NCBI GenBank assembly: GCA_020632035.1
Contig: JACKGG010000001.1
Span: forward strand, 152,985 to 216,984
DNA from: Candidatus Nomurabacteria bacterium
Lineage (GTDB): Bacteria > Patescibacteriota > Minisyncoccia > Phycocordibacterales > UBA918
Reading direction: 5' to 3'
Length of the DNA stretch: 64,000 nucleotides
Shown here: piece by piece, positions 5,178-64,000 of the stretch
Position numbering within the stretch: the first letter of the stretch is position 1
How the letters are laid out: the number at the start of each line of letters is the position of its first letter
Made by a program: the position numbers and the translations under genes
Notes under the pieces: generated by a model
Seen by the model: the letters and a program-made list of their open reading frames with translations, nothing else
Databases searched by the model: none
Told to the model about the DNA's origin: nothing

Positions 5178-6167
5178 ATGCACCAAAAACAGAAACGAAT
5201 TTTAGTAGTAGACCCAATACATATAGATGCAGTTAACAAACTTGAGGAAAGTGGTTTTTTAGTAGACATAAACCTTTTTCCTAAATTAGAATCCTTACCG
5301 AAGCTGGTCTCTAACTATAACGCTCTGATATGTCGTACAAACACTAAACTCTCTGGTGATTTCTTTAAAAATGCAAATCATCTAGATTGTGTAGCCTTAG
5401 CGTCAACCGGTTATGACCAGATAGATATTGAGAGCGCTAAGAAATACAAAGTACCAATTCTGGGACTTCCGTCTACCAACAAAGATATAGATGTGTATAG
5501 ACACGGTAACTTCATATCAACCGCAGAACATACAATACTTTTGATTTTGGCAGCTCTTGGTAATTTCCATAGCGCCAGCGTTAGTATGAAAGCTGGTAAG
5601 TGGGATAAGCCAAATTTTATAGGCAGCGAAGCGTACGGAAAAACACTAGGCTTTATTGGTTTCGGGAGAATAGCTAAGCTGGTTGCAGTTAGAGCGAGGG
5701 CCTTTGGAATGCAAACAATCGCTTATGATCCCCATGTCTTTAGAGACGAGATGAGTGAACATAATACAGAGAAAATGACTCTGGAAGATTTGTGTAGGCA
5801 GTCAGATATAATTACCATACATGCACCAAAAACACCTGAGACCGTATCATTACTGGATAAGAAGTGCTTCGACTCAATGAAGAAAGGGGTTATATTAATA
5901 AATACAGCTAGAGCAGAGATTATTAACAAAGAAGCGCTAATTGAAGCTCTTGAAAATGAGAAAGTTGCTCGAGTAGCACTCGATGTGTTCGTGAACGAAC
6001 CCTATGACATAGAATGGGATTTGGTTAAGGATGATAGAATAATACCCACCCCTCATATTGGAGGTTCAACTACTGAAGCCATGAGAAGAATATCTTTGAG
6101 TACAGCCGAAAGTATCATTAATTTCTTACAGCACGGAAACGACGTTAATCTAATAAATAAATTCTAA
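5178..6167 (+). CDS. D-isomer-specific 2-hydroxyacid dehydrogenase (glycerate/phosphoglycerate dehydrogenase-like)
   Basis: NAD-binding GFIGFGRIAKLVAVRA, catalytic-domain motifs HAPKTPET...LINTARAEII...PHIGGST. Confidence 0.65.
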   Translation: MHQKQKRILVVDPIHIDAVNKLEESGFLVDINLFPKLESLPKLVSNYNALICRTNTKLSGDFFKNANHLDCVALASTGYDQIDIESAKKYKVPILGLPSTNKDIDVYRHGNFISTAEHTILLILAALGNFHSASVSMKAGKWDKPNFIGSEAYGKTLGFIGFGRIAKLVAVRARAFGMQTIAYDPHVFRDEMSEHNTEKMTLEDLCRQSDIITIHAPKTPETVSLLDKKCFDSMKKGVILINTARAEIINKEALIEALENEKVARVALDVFVNEPYDIEWDLVKDDRIIPTPHIGGSTTEAMRRISLSTAESIINFLQHGNDVNLINKF

Positions 6168-33095: not shown

Positions 33096-33146
33096 AACAG
33101 TAAGCTACCATTATATCGATATTAAAAAAAGCCAGGTCAATCCCTT

Positions 33147-33167
33147 GACCTAGGGTAACCCTAGGTC
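33147..33167. repeat. REP-like palindrome (gacctagggtaaccctaggtc), left flank of Y1 transposase
   Basis: Perfect palindrome; second copy at 33864-33900 and third copy inside murD at 39061-39081. Confidence 0.7.
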
Positions 33168-33849
33168 AGCTTTGGTGACCTTTTAAAATATCGGTATTGT
33201 ATGCTAACCACTCAAACAATTCTTTTTTCATATCTATATGACTAGAAAAATAATCTGGGAATGGAGACGAATCTAAAACGGCTTTTTCTGGTCGATTTAA
33301 TCCTAAATGATCAGGCAAACTTGAATACTGATAAGTCGATACGAATTTATACGCAGTTTCTAAATTCTTTATCCCCCTCTCTACCCAATCTGATTGATAC
33401 AACTTAACAGGATTAAGGTGTATATAGGAATATAAATATTTTAAATATTCATCTTCTCCGGCGTGTTTAGCTTTATAATTTCCTTGGAACAAGGTGCCGG
33501 TACGCTCGTTTCTTTTATTAAAATACATTGAGTAACTTGTACATAATTTATTCATAAAAATACCTAGACCATCATCAGTATGTGGTGTGGCTATAATATG
33601 AAAATGATTAGGCATAAGACAGTATGCGCCGATAGAGACAAGTTGTTCCTTCCTATTAAATTCAAATATATTTTTACCCGACCTAGAAATATTACGATAG
33701 TTTACTGATACTGATGAATTACAAAGATATAAAAGATCAATAAATCTTTTATAATCTGCAGTATCAGTAAAGATAATTCTTCTGTCGGTACCTCTATTAT
33801 AAATATGATAAAACTCGCCAGTTGAAAAACTTATACTCCTGGTTGCCAT
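33166..33849 (-). mobile_element. HUH Y1 tyrosine transposase, IS200/RAYT-like (REP-associated)
   Basis: HuH motif CLMPNHFHIIAT and catalytic Tyr region YSYIHLNP; flanked on both sides by the same palindrome. Confidence 0.6.
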
Positions 33850-33863
33850 TTTTGTATACTAAC

Positions 33864-33900
33864 ACAACCTGACCTAGGGTAACCCTAGGTCAGGTTGTGT
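33864..33900. repeat. REP-like palindrome, right flank of Y1 transposase (extended 18-bp stem)
   Basis: acacaacctgacctagggt-a-accctaggtcaggttgtgt. Confidence 0.7.
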
Positions 33901-38472: not shown

Positions 38473-39824
38473 TCTTTGATATCAATTTCATTTATACATC
38501 TAACAAACTCGTCGTTTCTCTCATATTCATTTTTGAACATTCCAAATGAGGCGAAACCTGGGCTAAAGAGGAGGACGTCTCCGGGTTGGCCGGAGGCCAA
38601 CCCGGCCGAAACAGCATCAGACAAACTCCCCACCACCTCAGACTCAACCATTTCTTTTAGAACATCTGTACCCGTGCCCTTTAATAAAACAATCTTCTTA
38701 CAGAACTTCTTTGTCTCTTCGGCCAAAGGAGATGGGTCAATATTTTTGTATGCGCCACCGGCAATTAGAATTACATTCTTATCATTAATATTTCCCACAG
38801 CTTGCAAACCTTTTACCGTTGCTTCAGGAATTGTAGAATTATTATCATTATAAATCTTTACCCCATTTTTTTCTCCTAGGTATTCGAGCCGACCAGGTAC
38901 GCCTGGAAAACTAGCCAATCCAGCGAAAATAGACTCTTCATCTAAACTAACTGCCTTCAAGGCTTCGCAAGCAATGGCGGCGTTTAGTCGATTATGTGCT
39001 CCAGGCATGGCCAATAGCGCGTCTTCGGGGATAACTGACTCATCTACCAACTTGACCTCTTGACCTAGGGTTACCCTAGGCAATTGTTTAGCTAGTTCAA
39101 AAACTTCTGGAGTGGTGACGAGGACTCCGCTTTCTTCTTGGTATTCAAATATATTGGCTTTGTCGGCAAAATATAATTTCAAAGCTTCTTCTTTAGTTCT
39201 ACCTCCAGCTTGATAGTAGTTGAGGTGATCTTCCATAAAGTTGGTAAATACAGCAACTTGTGGACTCATCTTTGACCATCCCCAGCCTTGTAACTGCCAA
39301 GAGTCTAACTCCATAACACAGAGTGAATCTTCATTTACTTCATCTAAAAGTTGTAGATTGGAAACACCACGGACATTCCCGCCGAGAAGGACTTTTTCAC
39401 CAGTTACTTCAGTCAAAACATGATGAATCATGTGTGTGACAGTAGACTTCCCCCTAGTACCAGTCACTCCAATAATCGGTACTTTAGAAATTTCGGCAAA
39501 CCAAGCTGCCGATTGTTTGAGTGGCACGCCCGCTTTGCGGGCGTGCTCAAAGACTTCCAAATCCATCGGAGCTCCAGCACCCACCAAGACAAAGTCACAT
39601 TCAGTGAAGTGTTCCTTTTGATATGGACCAAAAGAAAATCTGACATTTGGATAGTCTGCCAATGCATCGACGGATGGTTGCATTACTTCTTCTGAGGCAT
39701 CATCAACCACGTGTACTTCAGCTCCTGCATCAGCTAAAAATTTTGCGTCGCCGACACCTCTACCAAGTAGGCCAATTCTCATTACAGTTATTTTCTTTCC
39801 GTAAAAATATTCTTTAAAATTCAT
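38469..39824 (-). CDS. murD: UDP-N-acetylmuramoylalanine--D-glutamate ligase
   Basis: N-terminal MRIGLLGRGVGDAKFLADAGAEV, IIGVTGTRGKSTVTHMIHHVL P-loop, MPGAHNRLNAAIACEALKA; contains in-frame REP copy (39061-39081) and GC palindrome (39534-39556). Confidence 0.75.
   Translation of the reverse strand: MNFKEYFYGKKITVMRIGLLGRGVGDAKFLADAGAEVHVVDDASEEVMQPSVDALADYPNVRFSFGPYQKEHFTECDFVLVGAGAPMDLEVFEHARKAGVPLKQSAAWFAEISKVPIIGVTGTRGKSTVTHMIHHVLTEVTGEKVLLGGNVRGVSNLQLLDEVNEDSLCVMELDSWQLQGWGWSKMSPQVAVFTNFMEDHLNYYQAGGRTKEEALKLYFADKANIFEYQEESGVLVTTPEVFELAKQLPRVTLGQEVKLVDESVIPEDALLAMPGAHNRLNAAIACEALKAVSLDEESIFAGLASFPGVPGRLEYLGEKNGVKIYNDNNSTIPEATVKGLQAVGNINDKNVILIAGGAYKNIDPSPLAEETKKFCKKIVLLKGTGTDVLKEMVESEVVGSLSDAVSAGLASGQPGDVLLFSPGFASFGMFKNEYERNDEFVRCINEIDIKE
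39061..39081. repeat. REP-like palindrome copy (tgacctagggttaccctaggca) inserted in-frame inside murD
   Basis: Same cctagggt-N-accctagg palindrome as flanks of transposase at 33166-33849; encodes LPRVTLGQE in murD reading frame. Confidence 0.65.
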
Positions 39825-41167: not shown

Positions 41168-41470
41168 AAGATTTTGACGCATAATTAAAAACCGCCAGAC
41201 TACTTGGGTCCAGCGGTTTTAAAGCTATTCGCGCTCCAGGGTTCGAACTCTACGAGTTCAGTTCAGGTTGTTGCTATTTTGTAAAATCAAAATAGCTGGC
41301 AACCTCCTAAAACTTACTCCCAGAAAGTTTAGCCTAGGATCTTTTAAATTAAATAACGAGCGAAGCAACTATATCGAAGTATGTAAGAATTTTGCTGGAA
41401 AATAATGAGTTCACGAATATATTTTCTGTATGCAGGCTCAGCTCGCGTGGACACAAAAGTCCCGCTGTCT

Positions 41471-41772
41471 GTCCGCGCTCTAGGGTTCGAACCTAGGACC
41501 TTTCGAGTATCAGTCGAATGCTCTACCAACCCTATTGCCTCGTAAACATCGGCAATTCGCTCCGCGACCGGGAAAAATACTATACGTATTTTTCAGCTCG
41601 CGCGTACAAGTAAAAAACATCGTCCGCGCTCTAGGGTTCGAACCTAGGACCTTTCGAGTATCAGTCGAATGCTCTACCAACCCTATTGCCTCGTAAACAT
41701 CGGCAATTCGCTCCGCGACCGGGAAAAATACTATACGTATTTTTCAGCTCGCGCGTACAAGTAAAAAACATC
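41471..41772 (-). repeat. Perfect 2 x 151-bp tandem repeat, each unit = 3' ~60 nt of tRNA-Ile + 90-nt spacer
   Basis: Units 41471-41621 and 41622-41772 are identical by eye; each begins with tRNA-Ile 3' portion (T-arm, anticodon arm, part of D-arm) and diverges at the D-loop. Confidence 0.85.
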
Positions 41773-41773
41773 G

Positions 41774-41846
41774 TCCGCGCTCTAGGGTTCGAACCTAGGA
41801 CCTTTCGAGTATCAGTCGAATGCTCTACCAACTGAGCTAAGCGCGG
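41774..41846 (-). tRNA. tRNA-Ile (anticodon GAU)
   Basis: Minus-strand 73-nt cloverleaf: acceptor CCGCGCT/AGCGCGG, D-arm GCTC-AGTTGGTA-GAGC, anticodon loop CTGATAC, T-arm CTAGG-TTCGAAC-CCTAG, discriminator A; CCA not encoded. Confidence 0.85.
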
Positions 41847-41962
41847 ACGATGTTTTCTAACAACGTGGCCAAAACTATAGCAGATTTTAACAATATTTGA
41901 AAGGGTAAAAATGAAAACCGACAGGGTTTGGAACCTTGCCGGTTTAGTGTCGCCGCTAACAA

Positions 41963-42226
41963 CTACATATTGTGGATCGTGAGCAAATCCTCAAAAGTTG
42001 CTCTTGGGAAAGTTGTTTCTCTCCGGTACTTCTCTGGTGCATTTTCACACCGCACCAAGACTTCCTCTTGCTCGAAGGCAACGCACTCACCAGTCAGAGG
42101 ATCGTACCTCTCTACTGGTAGATTAACGGTGACTTCAGCTGCGGAAGGGCCTACGACATGAAACATAGACCATGAAGCGAAAGCTAGTACACCTAATGGT
42201 AACAATATTTTTTTCAACAAACTCAT
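41963..42226 (-). CDS. Small secreted protein (87 aa)
   Basis: Alternative start (TTG) with RBS aggggacaATG; signal peptide MSLLKKILLPLGVLAFASWS. Confidence 0.4.
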   Translation of the reverse strand: MSLLKKILLPLGVLAFASWSMFHVVGPSAAEVTVNLPVERYDPLTGECVAFEQEEVLVRCENAPEKYRRETTFPRATFEDLLTIHNM

Positions 42227-42367
42227 TGTCCCCTAACCTCTTTGTTAGAAATTGTTACAAATGAAAACCACGCCGGATGACGCGAGACAGCATTATATAC
42301 GTTTTTTTACAAAAGTCAAACTGTTAAATTCATCCATACTGACTTCGACCTGCGGTATAATATTTAT

Positions 42368-42808
42368 ATGAAAAAAACCACTGCTCTAGCCTCGCTTCTT
42401 CTGTTACCAGTAATAACTCATGCTGAATCACTTCAGACTTTTTTCACTAACTTCATACAATTTCTAAGTAACATAGTCATCCCCTTTTTACTTGGAATAG
42501 CCTTTCTTTTCTTCGTAATCAATGCCTTTAGATTCTTTATATATGGTGGTGACAACGAAGAAGATCAGACAAAGGCTAAAACTTTAGCCATCTATAGTAT
42601 TTCAGCCTTTATATTAATCATTACCTTTTGGGGAATAATTAATTTATTAGTCAGTAGCTTAGGTTTTGGTGGAGTAGATCAACCACCATCTGACTACGTG
42701 TGTCCAGATGGTTTATGTCCAGAAAATCAAGAGCCTGATTGGATTCCTCCAATAGACAACCCTTGTAATGACCCGACCAACCCAGCTTGTAATCCGGGCA
42801 GGGCTTAG
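42368..42808 (+). CDS. Secreted two-TM protein, TrbC/VirB2-like T4SS-pilin candidate with Cys/Pro-rich C-terminus
   Basis: Signal peptide MKKTTALASLLLLPVITHA, two hydrophobic helices, C-terminal CPDGLCPENQEPDWIPPIDNPCNDPTNPACNPG; followed by terminator 42820-42856. Confidence 0.3.
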   Translation: MKKTTALASLLLLPVITHAESLQTFFTNFIQFLSNIVIPFLLGIAFLFFVINAFRFFIYGGDNEEDQTKAKTLAIYSISAFILIITFWGIINLLVSSLGFGGVDQPPSDYVCPDGLCPENQEPDWIPPIDNPCNDPTNPACNPGRA

Positions 42809-42819
42809 ACTTAATAAAC

Positions 42820-42856
42820 AAAAGACGGTGGCCTTTGGGCCACCGTCTTTTGTTTA
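42820..42856 (+). terminator. Rho-independent terminator
   Basis: aaaagacggtggcc-tttg-ggccaccgtcttttgtttatt. Confidence 0.7.
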
Positions 42857-43087
42857 TTAAAACTCTACTTCTGTTCGTAAGGGTTTATTCATAATCATAA
42901 CTCACAGCAGACTTGGAGTGTCACGTACTCTTTTGTCTTATCCTTTAGGCTTGGTCTTTCCCAAGAGTCTAATACCATTTCAGAGAATTGAGTATCATTT
43001 CTCGTTATGTGCTCAATTGAGGCACATAACACCGACCAATTAGTTATCATTGTGCTTTGTTACCAAAACACGACAACGTATCCAATT

Positions 43088-44545
<1,458 letters not shown>

Positions 44546-60192: not shown

Positions 60193-61611
60193 CTATTGAA
60201 GTGGCGCAAAATTAGTCTTAGTTTTAGCTATTATGTCTATCTTGGTTGGCCCCACTTCGCAAAGTGAAGAAGTTATTTGGGTATAGATACGGCTTAACTC
60301 AGTCCCGGTCGGAGCGAAGTAGGCGTTGTCAGTGTACGATGCGATATTTCTGATGAACTGTTGATCAACATTATTCCCCAATCCGATGGAATAAATTTCA
60401 ATTCCACTTTCGTTTAGTGATTTGGATAATTCTTCGGCTTCTTTAACTACATCTGCATTTCCGGAAATTGTCGGTAGTCCGTCAGTCAATAGTACTAATA
60501 CTCGCCTGGCATTCTCGTTGTGCCGGTCGGATCCAAGTTCTGCTTGAGCTAATTTAAGAGCATCTACTGTATTGGTGAAGCCAGTTTCTTCGCCTGGATC
60601 GATTTTTAACTTTCTTGTAGTGTCGGCTATTGTATTATGCTGGTTGGTTAAGCCGGTGACTAAGTTTGCTTTAGAATCAAAGGTAACAACAGAAACTTGA
60701 TCATTATTCCGTAAATTATCAATAAATGTGCCGGCTGCTTCAAGGGCTTTGGTGATTGGTTGCGGAGGATTAGATCCATCGTTATTCATACTCCCAGATA
60801 AGTCAATCGCAACTGTAACATCAGTTGGTATGACACAATTCTTGATAGTTTTAGCAATTGGATTCGGCCAGGTAAAGACAATTCCTTCAGTTGACCTCGG
60901 TTCGATGTTGTCTATAAAGGTCTGTGAGGCAGTGACCGGGTCGCCTTTTTCGTTAAAGACTGTGGCCACTACTTCGATGTTATCAGCTGGAAGTAGGGTG
61001 GTGTTCTCTATATCTACATATAATTGAGGCCGACTGTCAGCACTGATCAGGTTGATATCAGTTGAGCGGAACTGGTCTCGGCCGACGGTTGACGGTAGCC
61101 AGAGTTCGGATTGTTCTAATATAACTTTAGTTTCAGTAACCGGCTCTGCGCCATCGACAAATACTCTCCCCTCAAAGATTGGGTAGATACTGTCGGGAGG
61201 AAGCACGGTTTGACCCTCCCTTTCTCCTACCATCTCTCCATTACTAAATAACTGGAAGGTGTAGTTTAGAACTGGAGCGCCAGCCTCTTTATTGGCATTC
61301 TCTACATAAGCAACGACGTTGTATTGACCTTTGGTTATTTCAAAACTTTCTGTCCAGACTACTCTTGGTGGTACTACGTCGGCCTGACAAATCTGAACAC
61401 AACCTCCCCCACAATCAACCCCAGTCTCATCACCATTGGCTGTCCGATCAAAACAATTCGGTGGTACGTAGAAATTAGTAAAAAATATCAAAACACCCAC
61501 TACTCCAAGTGACAGAAAAAGCCCAACTAGGTATTGAACACGTCGCCAAATTGCCCACGGACGAATAAAGCTCATGTAATTATTGTACCAGATTGAGTCA
61601 CCAAAATTCAT
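60193..61611 (-). CDS. Membrane-anchored von Willebrand factor type A (vWA) domain protein
   Basis: N-terminal TM; MIDAS motif VAIDLSGSMNNDGS... VLLTDGLPT. Confidence 0.65.
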   Translation of the reverse strand: MNFGDSIWYNNYMSFIRPWAIWRRVQYLVGLFLSLGVVGVLIFFTNFYVPPNCFDRTANGDETGVDCGGGCVQICQADVVPPRVVWTESFEITKGQYNVVAYVENANKEAGAPVLNYTFQLFSNGEMVGEREGQTVLPPDSIYPIFEGRVFVDGAEPVTETKVILEQSELWLPSTVGRDQFRSTDINLISADSRPQLYVDIENTTLLPADNIEVVATVFNEKGDPVTASQTFIDNIEPRSTEGIVFTWPNPIAKTIKNCVIPTDVTVAIDLSGSMNNDGSNPPQPITKALEAAGTFIDNLRNNDQVSVVTFDSKANLVTGLTNQHNTIADTTRKLKIDPGEETGFTNTVDALKLAQAELGSDRHNENARRVLVLLTDGLPTISGNADVVKEAEELSKSLNESGIEIYSIGLGNNVDQQFIRNIASYTDNAYFAPTGTELSRIYTQITSSLCEVGPTKIDIIAKTKTNFAPLQ

Positions 61612-61661: not shown

Positions 61662-61684
61662 TGTCCAGCACCGAGTGCTGGACA
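61662..61684. repeat. REP-like palindrome 2 (tgtccagcaccgagtgctggaca), left flank of second Y1 transposase
   Basis: Identical 23-mer also at 62393-62415. Confidence 0.7.
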
Positions 61685-61714
61685 GATTGTTTGGTAATAG
61701 TTAAAAACCACATT

Positions 61715-62386
61715 CTATATCTCAAAATCTTCTTTTGCGCCTGAATTTTCAACAAACTCCTGGTATTCTTCAAAAGACCCAAAAGTGCTAGTAATAACCT
61801 CCCCTACTAACAATTTTTTCCATCTGTTGCTGAGATAATCTTGGTAACTAGACCACGGATAAGAAATTGTATTATTTTTCCACCGTCTCAGTTCATTAGG
61901 ATTGCGATGTATATACGCTGACAGATAGGTCAATTGTTCATCACTTTCCACTAACTTTACTTTATAAGCACCTTGAAACACATGTCCTGACTTCTCATAC
62001 CGCTTATTGAAATATTGGGAATAGGCGTTGCTTAGTTTATGCATATACCTAGACAAGCCATCATCACTTAAAGTCCTCACTGTTAAATGAAAGTGGTTTG
62101 GCATTATGCAAAAATTTATTATCTCGACAAACCTCTCACTTACAATATTATCTAGATCTTTATTTTTAACCAAAAAGTCCTCTTTCTTTAGGTAATTTTT
62201 AACAAAACGATTTGTTTGAGGTAGGGAAACGGGAGACTGCATATGCATAGCAAGGAATAGAAAACGAACATAATCAGAACGGTCATAAAAAAGCGTCTGC
62301 TTTAAATTTCCTCTATTGTATACGTGGTAATAATTATCCTCAATAATTTTCAAAGATCTCATATCAACAGCATACCAGTATAGCAA
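61715..62386 (-). mobile_element. HUH Y1 tyrosine transposase, IS200/RAYT-like (paralog of 33166-33849)
   Basis: HuH motif CIMPNHFHLTVRT, Tyr region SAYIHRNP; YYHVYNRGN N-terminus like the other copy; flanked by identical 23-bp palindromes. Confidence 0.6.
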
Positions 62387-62392
62387 ACACAG

Positions 62393-62415
62393 TGTCCAGC
62401 ACCGAGTGCTGGACA
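62393..62415. repeat. REP-like palindrome 2, right flank
   Basis: tgtccagcaccgagtgctggaca. Confidence 0.7.
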
Positions 62416-62583
62416 GTACGGGTGCTTCTTACAGAAGATGTGCACCTTTTGGATAGTTTGGTTCACTAGTTCCTAAAATATTTCAAAAGGTCTTGCGCGA
62501 CATTATTTGATTTATCAAATAAGAAGTGCCCTTGTGGTGAAAATCTCCCAGACTCCCTTACCCCTTACCCCTTACCCCAAAGT

Positions 62584-62611
62584 AAAAAACCACTCGAAAT
62601 GAGTGGTTTTT
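62584..62611. terminator. Bidirectional rho-independent terminator downstream of 5S rRNA cluster
   Basis: aaaaaccactc-gaaa-tgagtggttttt. Confidence 0.65.
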
Positions 62612-62633
62612 ATATGGAGTATTTAAAAGCTCT

Positions 62634-62791
62634 AAGTTGGCGCCTACCTACTCTTCCCCTTGCGGAGTACCATCGGTGGTAGAAGACTTTGGCTTTCAAA
62701 CGAGCGAGAGAAACGAAAGTGGACCGCAGTCAATTTTCATTTACGAGCAAGTAAAAAAGTGACCGTGCCGTGTTCGGAATGAGAACGGGTG
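62634..62791 (-). pseudogene. Interrupted/variant 5S rRNA copy (3' half + about 75-nt insertion + 5S core motif, divergent 5' end)
   Basis: Shares aagttggcgcctacctactcttccccttgcggagtaccatcggtggtagaagacttt with the intact 5S, then unrelated insert, then ccgtgttcggaatgagaacgggtg. Confidence 0.5.
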
Positions 62792-62916
62792 AGCTAGTCT
62801 GGGAGACTAGCGCAAGACTCGCCCAGCAATTTTGTGAGTTTCGAGACAAAATAGCGAGCGAGTGGACAGCCGCTGTAAGAGGGACCCCTTTCGCAAATCA
62901 CCCAAAGCAAAACAAA

Positions 62917-62938
62917 AAGTCACCTTGCGGTGACTTTT
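62917..62938. terminator. Rho-independent terminator hairpin between 5S copies
   Basis: aaagtcacc-ttgc-ggtgacttt with flanking A/T runs. Confidence 0.5.
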
Positions 62939-62957
62939 CAGGAGAATTAAATGCTTA

Positions 62958-63032
62958 AAGTTGGCGCCTACCTACTCTTCCCCTTGCGGAGTACCATCGG
63001 TGGTAGAAGACTTTACTGCCGTGTTCGGAATG
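62958..63032 (-). pseudogene. Truncated 5S rRNA copy (3' about 75 nt)
   Basis: Identical to 3' two-thirds of intact 5S through ccgtgttcggaatg, then diverges. Confidence 0.55.
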
Positions 63033-63121
63033 CTCAATGTTTGTTCAAGAGCTTGCGATTGAACACAAACATTAGTCCTTTAGGGCGAACGGTCTAAAAG
63101 TTTTTAAAAATCAAGCTCTTC

Positions 63122-63233
63122 AAGTTGGCGCCTACCTACTCTTCCCCTTGCGGAGTACCATCGGTGGTAGAAGACTTTACTGCCGTGTTCGGAATGAGAA
63201 CGGGTGTACCCCTTCCCCCAAAGCACCAACTTG
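63122..63233 (-). rRNA. rrf: 5S ribosomal RNA
   Basis: Minus strand AAGTTGGTGC...CACCCGTTCTCATTCCGAACACGGCAG...GATGGTACTCC...GAGTAGGTAGGCGCCAACTT; helix I pairing of ends; matches bacterial 5S consensus (CCGAACACGG, GATGGTA). Confidence 0.8.
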
Positions 63234-63415
63234 AAAGGCTCGATTTTGATTTTAAAAAACTTTTAGTTGTGTACCCTTGAAATTGTCTCCCAGACAATTT
63301 CAATCCCTCAGCACCAACTTTAAGAATTTAATTCGTTATTTAACTTGCTTCAATCGCGTGAAATGGTGATATGTTGTCGTGAGTCCTTATACTCTGATTA
63401 GTAACATCTCGTAAA

Positions 63416-63524
63416 TGGTAGGGGTAGCAGGAATTGAACCCACCGCCTTTGCTTGATCGCACTCGTAGCGAGCTCAGGCCCTTCGCGAGAACCAGTATTC
63501 TTTGTCCATCCAAGTGGTACCCCT
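63416..63524 (-). ncRNA. tRNA-like structured element (acceptor-like stem + T-arm-like GGTTCAATTCC + encoded CCA) in 23S-5S spacer, flanked by 17-bp inverted repeats
   Basis: Minus strand AGGGGTA...GTGGGTTCAATTCCTGCTACCCCTACCA; inverted repeats caatcgcgtgaaatggt at 63351-63368 and 63562-63578; could not be folded into a canonical cloverleaf. Confidence 0.25.
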
Positions 63525-63789
63525 TGAATAAACTACTGACACTCTATACCCCCGTGAAATTACCATTTCACGCGATTGAAAATTCACATATTCAAGAGAC
63601 TCTTCGAACTCGACCTTTCAGCCGAGCATTAGGTAACACTTCACTCATCAAATTACACAGTTCAAAATCTTACAAATTGCCTGCATTTCTAGGCGCGCCA
63701 GAAAGATTTTTGGAACGGGGCTTGTGCCCAGTGACAAAAATCTTTTGCCAGCGCAACACCGAAATGCTGCAATTTTAAGGTTTTGATGT

Positions 63790-64000
<211 letters not shown>

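Follow-up and report, generated by a model that had tools for sequence, protein, structure and literature searches.

Near one end of a 64-kb stretch of DNA from a Candidatus Nomurabacteria bacterium (contig JACKGG010000001.1; all 64,000 nucleotides are referred to below as the window), a 5S rRNA gene is accompanied by partial and interrupted copies of itself. These copies are real and specific to this lineage, and they form a group of 5S pseudogene relics that surrounds a single, presumably functional gene. The window is a bacterial stretch densely packed with genes, and its rRNA genes are unlinked: the 16S rRNA gene lies at 43085-44544 (minus strand), and the 3' end of a 23S rRNA gene (63800-64000, minus strand) is followed by the 5S rRNA gene (63124-63230, minus strand). 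The tRNA-Ile gene is located at 41774-41846 (minus strand), and the 23S-5S pair is 19 kb away from the 16S/tRNA-Ile region. We scanned for 5S genes with the Rfam covariance model RF00001 (curated cut-off 38 bits; also run at a permissive threshold) and with a clade covariance model, R2, which was built from six 5S genes (that of the window and those of five relatives) and run unfiltered over all 64 kb. Other types of evidence came from repeat finding, self-comparison, long-gap alignment, RNA folding, Pfam scans and a rule-based terminator scan. Related loci, denoted by L numbers, came from two sources: 10 were picked up in metagenomes by means of a 29-mer of the 5S 3' domain, and four more, three of them with a 5S, by looking up the VWA-domain protein encoded at 60193-61611 of the window. 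This protein is 100% identical to one listed by NCBI for a Candidatus Nomurabacteria bacterium (Patescibacteria).

An intact 5S gene inside a broken one

Both covariance models single out one 107-nt gene at 63124-63230 (minus strand), hereafter the inner copy. It scores 70 bits with RF00001, covering model positions 1-120, and 131 bits with the clade model (E = 3e-31); 34 of the 34 modelled pairs are standard, and helices I-V are all able to pair around the three-way junction. Its length fits that of Parcubacteria 5S rRNAs, which typically measure 105-110 nt (PMC9297842). The inner copy alone passes the Rfam cut-off; all others reach at most 19 bits as partial matches, and the permissive threshold adds just the 25-nt loop C core of copy C (19 bits; see below). 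Nothing else credible was found by the clade model in the 64 kb. In this respect a first reading of the DNA, here called the sequence-only reading, had correctly placed an intact 5S gene on the minus strand, and the inner copy is presumably the sole functional 5S here.

The inner copy is delimited by a 5' flank (63231-63266, minus strand) and a 3' flank (63094-63123, minus strand), which are the two strands of a long processing-type stem according to inverted repeats (I3 and I6) and the minimum free energy (MFE) fold. Segment 63094-63131 pairs with 63223-63266 at 84-95% (I3, I6), and G-U wobbles in the RNA account for two of the three differences found within the 17-nt flank portion of I3, as read by eye. 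A complete 5S together with its own flanking stem of about 30 bp thus makes up a 173-nt cassette (63094-63266). The flank sequences, AAAATCGAGCCTTTCAA and TTGAAGAGCTTGATTTT, have their best relative in L141, which is a weak match (z about 3.3-3.7), and otherwise no clear relative; the 3' flank has no detectable similarity to the flanks of copies B and C described below (z 0.4-1.1).

On both sides of the cassette lie pieces of another 5S gene, hereafter the outer gene. Its 5' half (63269-63334, minus strand), recognized by a match to the 5S 5' end and by a 24-nt inverted repeat of 92%, is composed of a flank (63319-63334), GTTGGTGCT (63310-63318), GAGGG, a hairpin (63277-63304) and GGGTACAC (63269-63276). 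The matching segment is AAGTTGGTGCT at 63310-63320 (11/11) and the hairpin is a perfect 28-nt insert, in agreement with the upstream 5' fragment with an internal hairpin that had been proposed; by alignment, the loop A residues (5S positions 10-15) are deleted. Direct reading of the sequence on the other side of the cassette (63033-63093, minus strand) reveals the continuation of this gene: an A and CCGTTC (63087-63093), the latter in the correct order between GGGTACAC and CATTCCG, and then a 54-nt loop C insert (63033-63086) containing a hairpin in the predicted RNA fold. The 3' part of the outer gene, copy B (62960-63032, minus strand; 5S positions 35-107), was detected by repeats, self-comparison and the clade model (62960-63070, 52 bits, E = 5e-11). 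It is identical to the intact 5S at 73 of 73 positions, and at 75 of 75 when the two bases beyond are included (62958-63032 versus 63122-63196), which upholds the earlier claim of a truncated copy keeping the 3' ~75 nt. Behind copy B are an ancestral 3' flank (62944-62959), assigned by alignment with L124, and an intrinsic terminator (62913-62940) called by the terminator scan; this unit occupies 62913-62959 on the minus strand, and copy B is within the transcription unit, before the first terminator. The complete minus-strand order of the outer gene is therefore GTTGGTGCT, GAGGG, the 28-nt hairpin, GGGTACAC, AA, the cassette, A, CCGTTC, the 54-nt insert, and CATTCCG through to the 3' end, with inserts of 28, 173 and 54 nt that fall within or close to loop B, helix III and loop C.

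Together, the upstream 5' fragment and copy B are two halves of one older 5S gene, in which the intact 5S is nested. This can be said because the outer flanks pair with each other (62944-62967 with 63311-63334; 24 nt, 92%, I2/I9), with 16 nt of the pairing outside the 5S, and because the downstream flank is orthologous to that of L124: the flank and terminator of copy B align with those of the single 5S of L124 (z 7.3). The copy B flank is nearer to this flank of another species than to those of copy C (z 4.1) or the inner copy (z 0.4-0.6). Since flank and terminator match those of L124, the outer gene occupies the ancestral position and has ancestral flanks; its 5' piece directly abuts the conserved spacer stem, the same as in L123, L124 and L141. 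The RNA fold of 62940-63340 contains the outer and inner stems, one nested in the other, with an MFE of -144.7 kcal/mol (z -7.8). The outer gene itself fails intact-core pairing, as loop A is deleted and helix III and loop C are interrupted, and the clade model aligns it with real identity from loop C onward only.

Copy C, stub D and related loci

Further downstream, copy C (62636-62910, minus strand; detected by long-gap alignment and the clade model) is a 5'-truncated 5S with three inserts. Its 5S pieces are found at 62901-62910 (9/10), 62884-62892 (8/9), 62766-62792 (26/27; 26/26 in the core 62766-62791) and 62636-62690 (55/55, corresponding to 5S positions 53-107; 57/57 including the two bases beyond). 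The inserts between these pieces measure about 8 nt, 91 nt (62793-62883) and 75 nt (62691-62765). The clade model matches 62636-62701 (35.6 bits, E = 8e-7) and 62766-62790 (20.6 bits, E = 0.005). As the sequence-only reading had described, the 3' half and the core are split by the 75-nt insert, which lies between the 57/57 and 26/26 tracts. Its further claim that the 5' end had been replaced needs correction, as the two upstream-most pieces are surviving, collinear 5' sequence; copy C is nearly full-length from about position 5-7, and only the first 4-6 nt and the 5' strand of helix I are missing. The 3' flank of copy C, which resembles the 5S flanks of the clade only at the between-species level (z about 4-5), leads into a terminator-like hairpin (AAAAACCACTCATTTCGAGTGGTTTTTT) at 62585-62611, a palindrome read by eye and uncalled by the rule-based terminator scan (flank and hairpin together 62585-62635, minus strand).

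Directly after this terminator comes stub D (62544-62582, minus strand), in which CTTTGGGGTAAGGGGTA at 62566-62582 corresponds to 5S positions 9-25 (self-comparison, 16/17, E = 0.007). It is extended as (GGGGTAA)x3, which arose through slippage, and then GTCTGGGAGA. Both copy C and stub D begin near 5S position 7-9, right after terminator T-runs, with TTTTG joined to CTTTGGG in copy C and TTTTTTA joined to CTTTGGGG in stub D. The hairpin motif GTCTCCCAGAC occurs three times in the window versus 0.56 expected, and three of the three occurrences are in the 5S locus. The covariance scan therefore reveals one intact 5S above the Rfam cut-off, as a single-gene view of the locus would have it, but the other copies are not unrelated sequences: they still align formally and are 5S-derived (E = 5e-11, 8e-7 and 0.005). 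The architecture proposed at the outset, an intact gene followed by 3' fragments, gives way to a different one, in which the upstream fragment and copy B belong to one enclosing gene and copy C is near full-length.

The 91-nt insert of copy C (62793-62883, plus strand) contains a two-hairpin element consisting of a hairpin, GCAAGAC, a second hairpin and GGACAGCCGCTGTAAG. Three occurrences of this element were observed downstream of the 5S in L121 and L125 (L121 3796-4140; L125 4390-4733); the insert shares an exact 25-mer with them (E = 1e-8), in the opposite orientation relative to the 5S. A partial CGCAAGACC motif of the element appears again at about 62487-62495 of the window. It is conceivable that the element is a mobile element or a small RNA.

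All related loci that carry a 5S have a single one, and the clade model detected exactly one 5S per locus and no 5S fragments in eight of these loci (63 kb). Their common layout comprises the 23S gene, one or two spacer tRNAs or tRNA-like elements in a conserved stem, the single 5S and a terminator, and their 5S flanks are complementary and species-specific; in L127, the VWA gene comes almost directly after the 5S terminator. An IS200-like Y1 transposase gene that neighbors the 5S array in the window is absent from the same intergenic position in the syntenic loci L121, L126, L127 and L128. Like the 5S array itself, this adjacent gene is lineage-specific. The nearest VWA relatives (73% and 70% identity) are on short contigs without a 5S. 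A scan of species representatives searched for a short helix IV between CCGATGGTACT and GGAAGAGTAGGT. This pattern was too permissive and returned 120 loci, mostly from unrelated Alphaproteobacteria and Bacteroidota, and its single Parcubacteria match stops at the 23S terminus.

The spacer between 23S and 5S in the window (63349-63580, minus strand) contains a tRNA-like element of about 139 nt (63424-63562), with an acceptor stem, a T arm and an encoded CCA, inside an enclosing stem of 22 nt (95% complementary). Its fold is strongly structured (z -7.2), and it was uncalled by both ARAGORN and Rfam. The same slot is occupied by ordinary tRNAs in L123 and L124, by a degenerate tRNA-like element in L141, and by an apparent tRNA with an insertion of about 75 nt in the anticodon loop in L121. 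The 23S gene of L121 also contains a group I intron at 5896-6114 (Rfam, 54.6 bits), in line with the insertion-rich rRNA genes of the Candidate Phyla Radiation (CPR).

Origin of the array

An array of this kind might be an assembly artefact, in which a single 5S gene, or variants from mixed strains, had been stacked by the assembler. The source is apparently a metagenome-assembled genome, and the independent contigs available cover the outer junction of copy C, not the internal junctions. Against this, the repeats are only 57-75 nt long, which is less than the usual length of a read, and the sequence at each junction is unique. In addition, Logan assemblies of two other read sets (SRR12358675 and SRR12358676) match the window at 100% identity as far as copy C and end at 62662 and 62659, about 29 nt into its 5S segment, which is where a repeat would be expected to break a k=31 graph. 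These independent assemblies confirm the outer junction of copy C and the presence of the repeat. The nested flank pairing is also too orderly for a chimera, and we regard an artefact as the least probable of the alternatives weighed here, and a highly improbable one.

The explanation that we favor, with moderate confidence, is that one functional 5S is found amid presumably non-functional relics produced by illegitimate recombination, whose identity to the live gene is partly kept up by gene conversion. Extra copies would have been generated by illegitimate recombination or template switching at the structured, heavily transcribed end of the operon; the junctions show microhomology, with GGTGCTTTGG at the start of the 5S matched by GGTGACTTTTTG in the terminator. 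For the cassette and copy C at least, the accompanying flanks would not have been copied recently from the resident one; they would stem either from import out of diverged relatives or from much older paralogs that were lost by every sampled relative. Small hairpin elements would later have been inserted into the dead copies. Upon transcription, the inner 5S would be freed by cleavage at its own stem and the outer halves discarded.

The distribution of mismatches and flanks underlies this account. The retained 5S pieces are 89-100% identical to the live gene, whereas the adjacent flanks are unalignable or distantly related. In the long segments there are 0 differences from the live gene at 128 positions, versus 5 at 91 positions in the short islands (Fisher p = 0.012), a pattern that is expected if conversion requires a minimum tract length: gene conversion from the live gene would keep the long 3' segments identical, and islands too short to recombine would drift. 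Import from a donor like L123 or L124 is expected to leave only one or two differences in the 3' segment. Because the copy B flank is closer to the flank of another species than to those of its neighbors, recent local duplication including the flanks cannot explain copy C or the cassette.

Simpler schemes were tried and rejected. A tandem duplication of the 5S 3' part with flank and terminator cannot be the whole story, as the copy B flank is far closer to that of L124 and local flank similarity is confined to the junction. Two nested duplications, one on the 5' and one on the 3' side, do not agree with outer flanks that pair mutually yet differ from the inner pair. Templated insertions copied from nearby sequence were also discarded, since no source was found within the window.

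Several observations weigh against illegitimate recombination followed by gene conversion. Neither the window nor any related locus yielded a donor for the cassette flanks or for most of the inserts, and there is no target-site duplication at the cassette junctions. The small open reading frames spanning the array were looked up for independent contigs of the internal junctions, and none is on record. Gene conversion is deduced from just five mismatches; moreover, positions 67-107 are invariant in the clade and the sample of relatives was picked by a 29-mer located there, so identity in this region is partly uninformative.

Could the extra 5S segments instead be under selection, as processing stems, as decoys for 5S-binding ribosomal proteins, or as pieces of a fragmented 5S? 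The absence of differences at 128 positions beside unalignable flanks would suit such a role, as would an outer stem that is 92% complementary and encloses the live gene, and the position of copy B inside the transcription unit. However, none of the eight related loci (0/8) holds a segment of this kind, so there is no conservation; the outer gene is missing loop A and is interrupted inside both helix III and loop C; terminators precede copy C as well as stub D; and the short islands do drift. Selected function thus appears quite improbable. It also seems unlikely that the outer halves work as fragments after excision of the cassette, because loop A is deleted.

A comparison with the tRNA-Ile locus bears on another alternative. 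This locus (41225-41846, minus strand) is a perfect 151-nt tandem repeat with 2.4 copies, 100% identical including the spacer, whose unit consists of tRNA positions about 15-74 and a 90-nt spacer; an older degenerate 3' stub lies at 41225-41248, and the sequence past the last fragment resembles the spacer over 16 nt only (p about 0.005). A repeat of this length and exactness is of the kind whose copy number can be misjudged by short-read assemblies. The distance between the 16S gene and tRNA-Ile is about 1.2 kb (41850-43085), and in this gap are an open reading frame on the opposite strand that encodes a type IV secretion pilin domain (42368-42808), and, next to it, a perfect palindrome of 23 bp (42811-42860). 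At both the 5S and the tRNA-Ile locus, the segments derived from an RNA gene match the live copy without differences until roughly its 3' end, and the downstream flanks differ. The proposal of one architecture for both arrays is therefore only half supported: identity up to the 3' end is common to them, but a clean tandem repeat on the one side is set against nesting and inserts on the other. It is possible that the two arrays share a cause.

That cause might be integration: elements bearing an integrase would have repeatedly entered the 3' parts of the 5S (and tRNA-Ile) genes with replacement ends, and later deletions would have left displaced 3' fragments. Identical segments anchored at the 3' end of an RNA gene are the classic look of tRNA attachment sites; here, such segments are combined with variable 5' truncation points, and the downstream flanks vary among copies. 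On the other hand, Pfam searches of the neighboring open reading frames detected no integrase near the 5S or tRNA-Ile genes but housekeeping genes and the Y1 transposase, and the spacers are just about 90-250 nt with no element DNA between. Integration would account neither for the nesting nor for a 5' fragment located upstream of the intact gene, nor does it agree with a copy C that retains its 5' half. The 5S 29-mer and a tRNA-Ile 31-mer had no match in 2.9 million viral contigs, and a literature search on integration into 5S genes yielded no relevant paper. We consider integration scars quite unlikely. Arrays of tRNA gene 3' fragments left by islands and prophages are nevertheless comparable, as they likewise hold identical 3'-anchored pieces beside an intact gene; the 5S array differs from them in having no integrase or element body and in having a 5' fragment, nesting and inserts.

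The Y1 transposase gene (61715-62386; 61662-62416 with its flanking palindromes, minus strand) has a Pfam Y1_Tnp domain (48 bits) and is flanked by identical 24-nt palindromes, TGTCCAGCACCGAGTGCTGGACA, at 61662-61685 and 62393-62416. It neighbors the 5S array, of which it may be a part. Assemblies from five other samples have an identical VWA gene and end inside the Y1 gene (62222, 62057, 61936), as might be expected if the transposase had further copies in the genome or were strain-variable. A second Y1 gene (33166-33849, in region 33146-33892) has its own perfect palindrome, TGACCTAGGGTAACCCTAGGTCA, with a solo copy at 39061-39080. With their palindromes, both genes look like REP/RAYT-type units.

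Such a transposase (HUH, IS200/RAYT-like) might have transferred single-stranded DNA bounded by hairpins into 5S copies, and both the stem-bounded 5S cassette and the small hairpins would be examples of such DNA. The palindrome-flanked gene is about 160 nt from the last relic and present in this lineage only, hairpins are contained in or formed by most inserts, and a long inverted repeat delimits the cassette. Transposition of the IS200/IS605 type makes no target duplication, and none is seen here. Of the features of a REP/RAYT system, the gene and its flanking palindromes are present, but in the 64 kb searched, TGTCCAGCACCGAGTGCTGGACA was not found in or beside any 5S insert. Moreover, the inserts share no common end or target motif, no RNA-gene fragments are near the second Y1 gene, and no Y1 gene adjoins the tRNA-Ile array. 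Transposition by the Y1 enzyme is therefore judged to be very unlikely.

A broader proposal, which we regard as unlikely, is that the intact 5S came in as a self-contained cassette bounded by a stem and took over the function of the resident 5S gene, and that copy C was a second such arrival with its own flank and terminator. The conserved 5S and tRNA-Ile sequences would have served as recombination anchors letting naturally DNA-importing bacteria stack diverged alleles, or the Y1 transposase would have moved the cassettes. If true, this would mean rRNA gene turnover by insertion rather than by point mutation.

Comparison with known 5S remnants

The closest counterparts are the remnants described by Stepanov & Fox (2021), which are 5S-like sequences without terminal parts and with large core insertions, located downstream of normal 5S genes at the ends of operons. 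They are sometimes present in multiple copies, each after a putative terminator, and were judged to be pseudogenes; the insertion hot zone consists of loop B, helix III and loop C, plus the helix III bulge. Copy C and stub D fit this description point for point. With regard to terminal loss, copy C lacks the first 4-6 nt and stub D keeps about 17 nt; large core inserts are found in copy C (91 and 75 nt) and in the outer gene (28, 173 and 54 nt), in or next to the hot zone. As for position, the order here is 23S, inner 5S, copy B, terminator, copy C, terminator-like hairpin and stub D. The differences are that the described remnants come from other phyla than the Patescibacteria/CPR, and that here a live gene is found inside a broken one. 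In some of the described cases the remnants share inserts with a functional expanded 5S, whereas the sole intact 5S in the 64 kb is insert-free. The word 'nested' does not occur in the main text of Stepanov & Fox (2021), and a live 5S nested in a dead one is not described in the portions of the other literature with which the locus was compared.

Other systems are less similar. In functional expanded 5S rRNAs the core is intact and the molecule works, whereas the outer gene is missing loop A and has 173 nt inserted in it, and there is an uninterrupted 5S besides. In rRNA intervening sequences, an insert bounded by a long helix is removed at a stem and the host rRNA still works in pieces; of this, the bounding helix is present here. 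The rrnD operon of E. coli has two 5S genes at its end, both intact and functional; the window likewise has more than one 5S-derived unit at the distal end, but only one is intact. CPR bacteria are notorious for insertions in the rRNA genes for 16S and 23S, and a survey of 645 CPR 5S genes revealed no insertion of 100 bp or more (Tsurumaki et al. 2024, PMC11270868). The insertions observed here are in dead 5S copies and not in the working gene. In the Rfam search, the inserts of the 5S relics had no match to any intron family.

Copy C and stub D are thus instances of the Stepanov & Fox kind of remnant in a new phylum, and the locus represents gene debris of a kind already described in other bacteria rather than a new molecular system. 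For annotation, this means that just one of the 5S-like stretches is a gene and that partial model matches should be marked as pseudogene fragments. Insertion-bearing 5S relics had been known from Firmicutes and Pseudoalteromonas, and the finding adds the Candidate Phyla Radiation to this range. It also provides a clear-cut example in which a live 5S is nested inside its dead predecessor. With identical long segments, drifting islands and unrelated flanks side by side, the locus is a small natural test bed for the tract limits of gene conversion, and the same contrast could be used to test for lateral replacement of rRNA genes in these reduced genomes.

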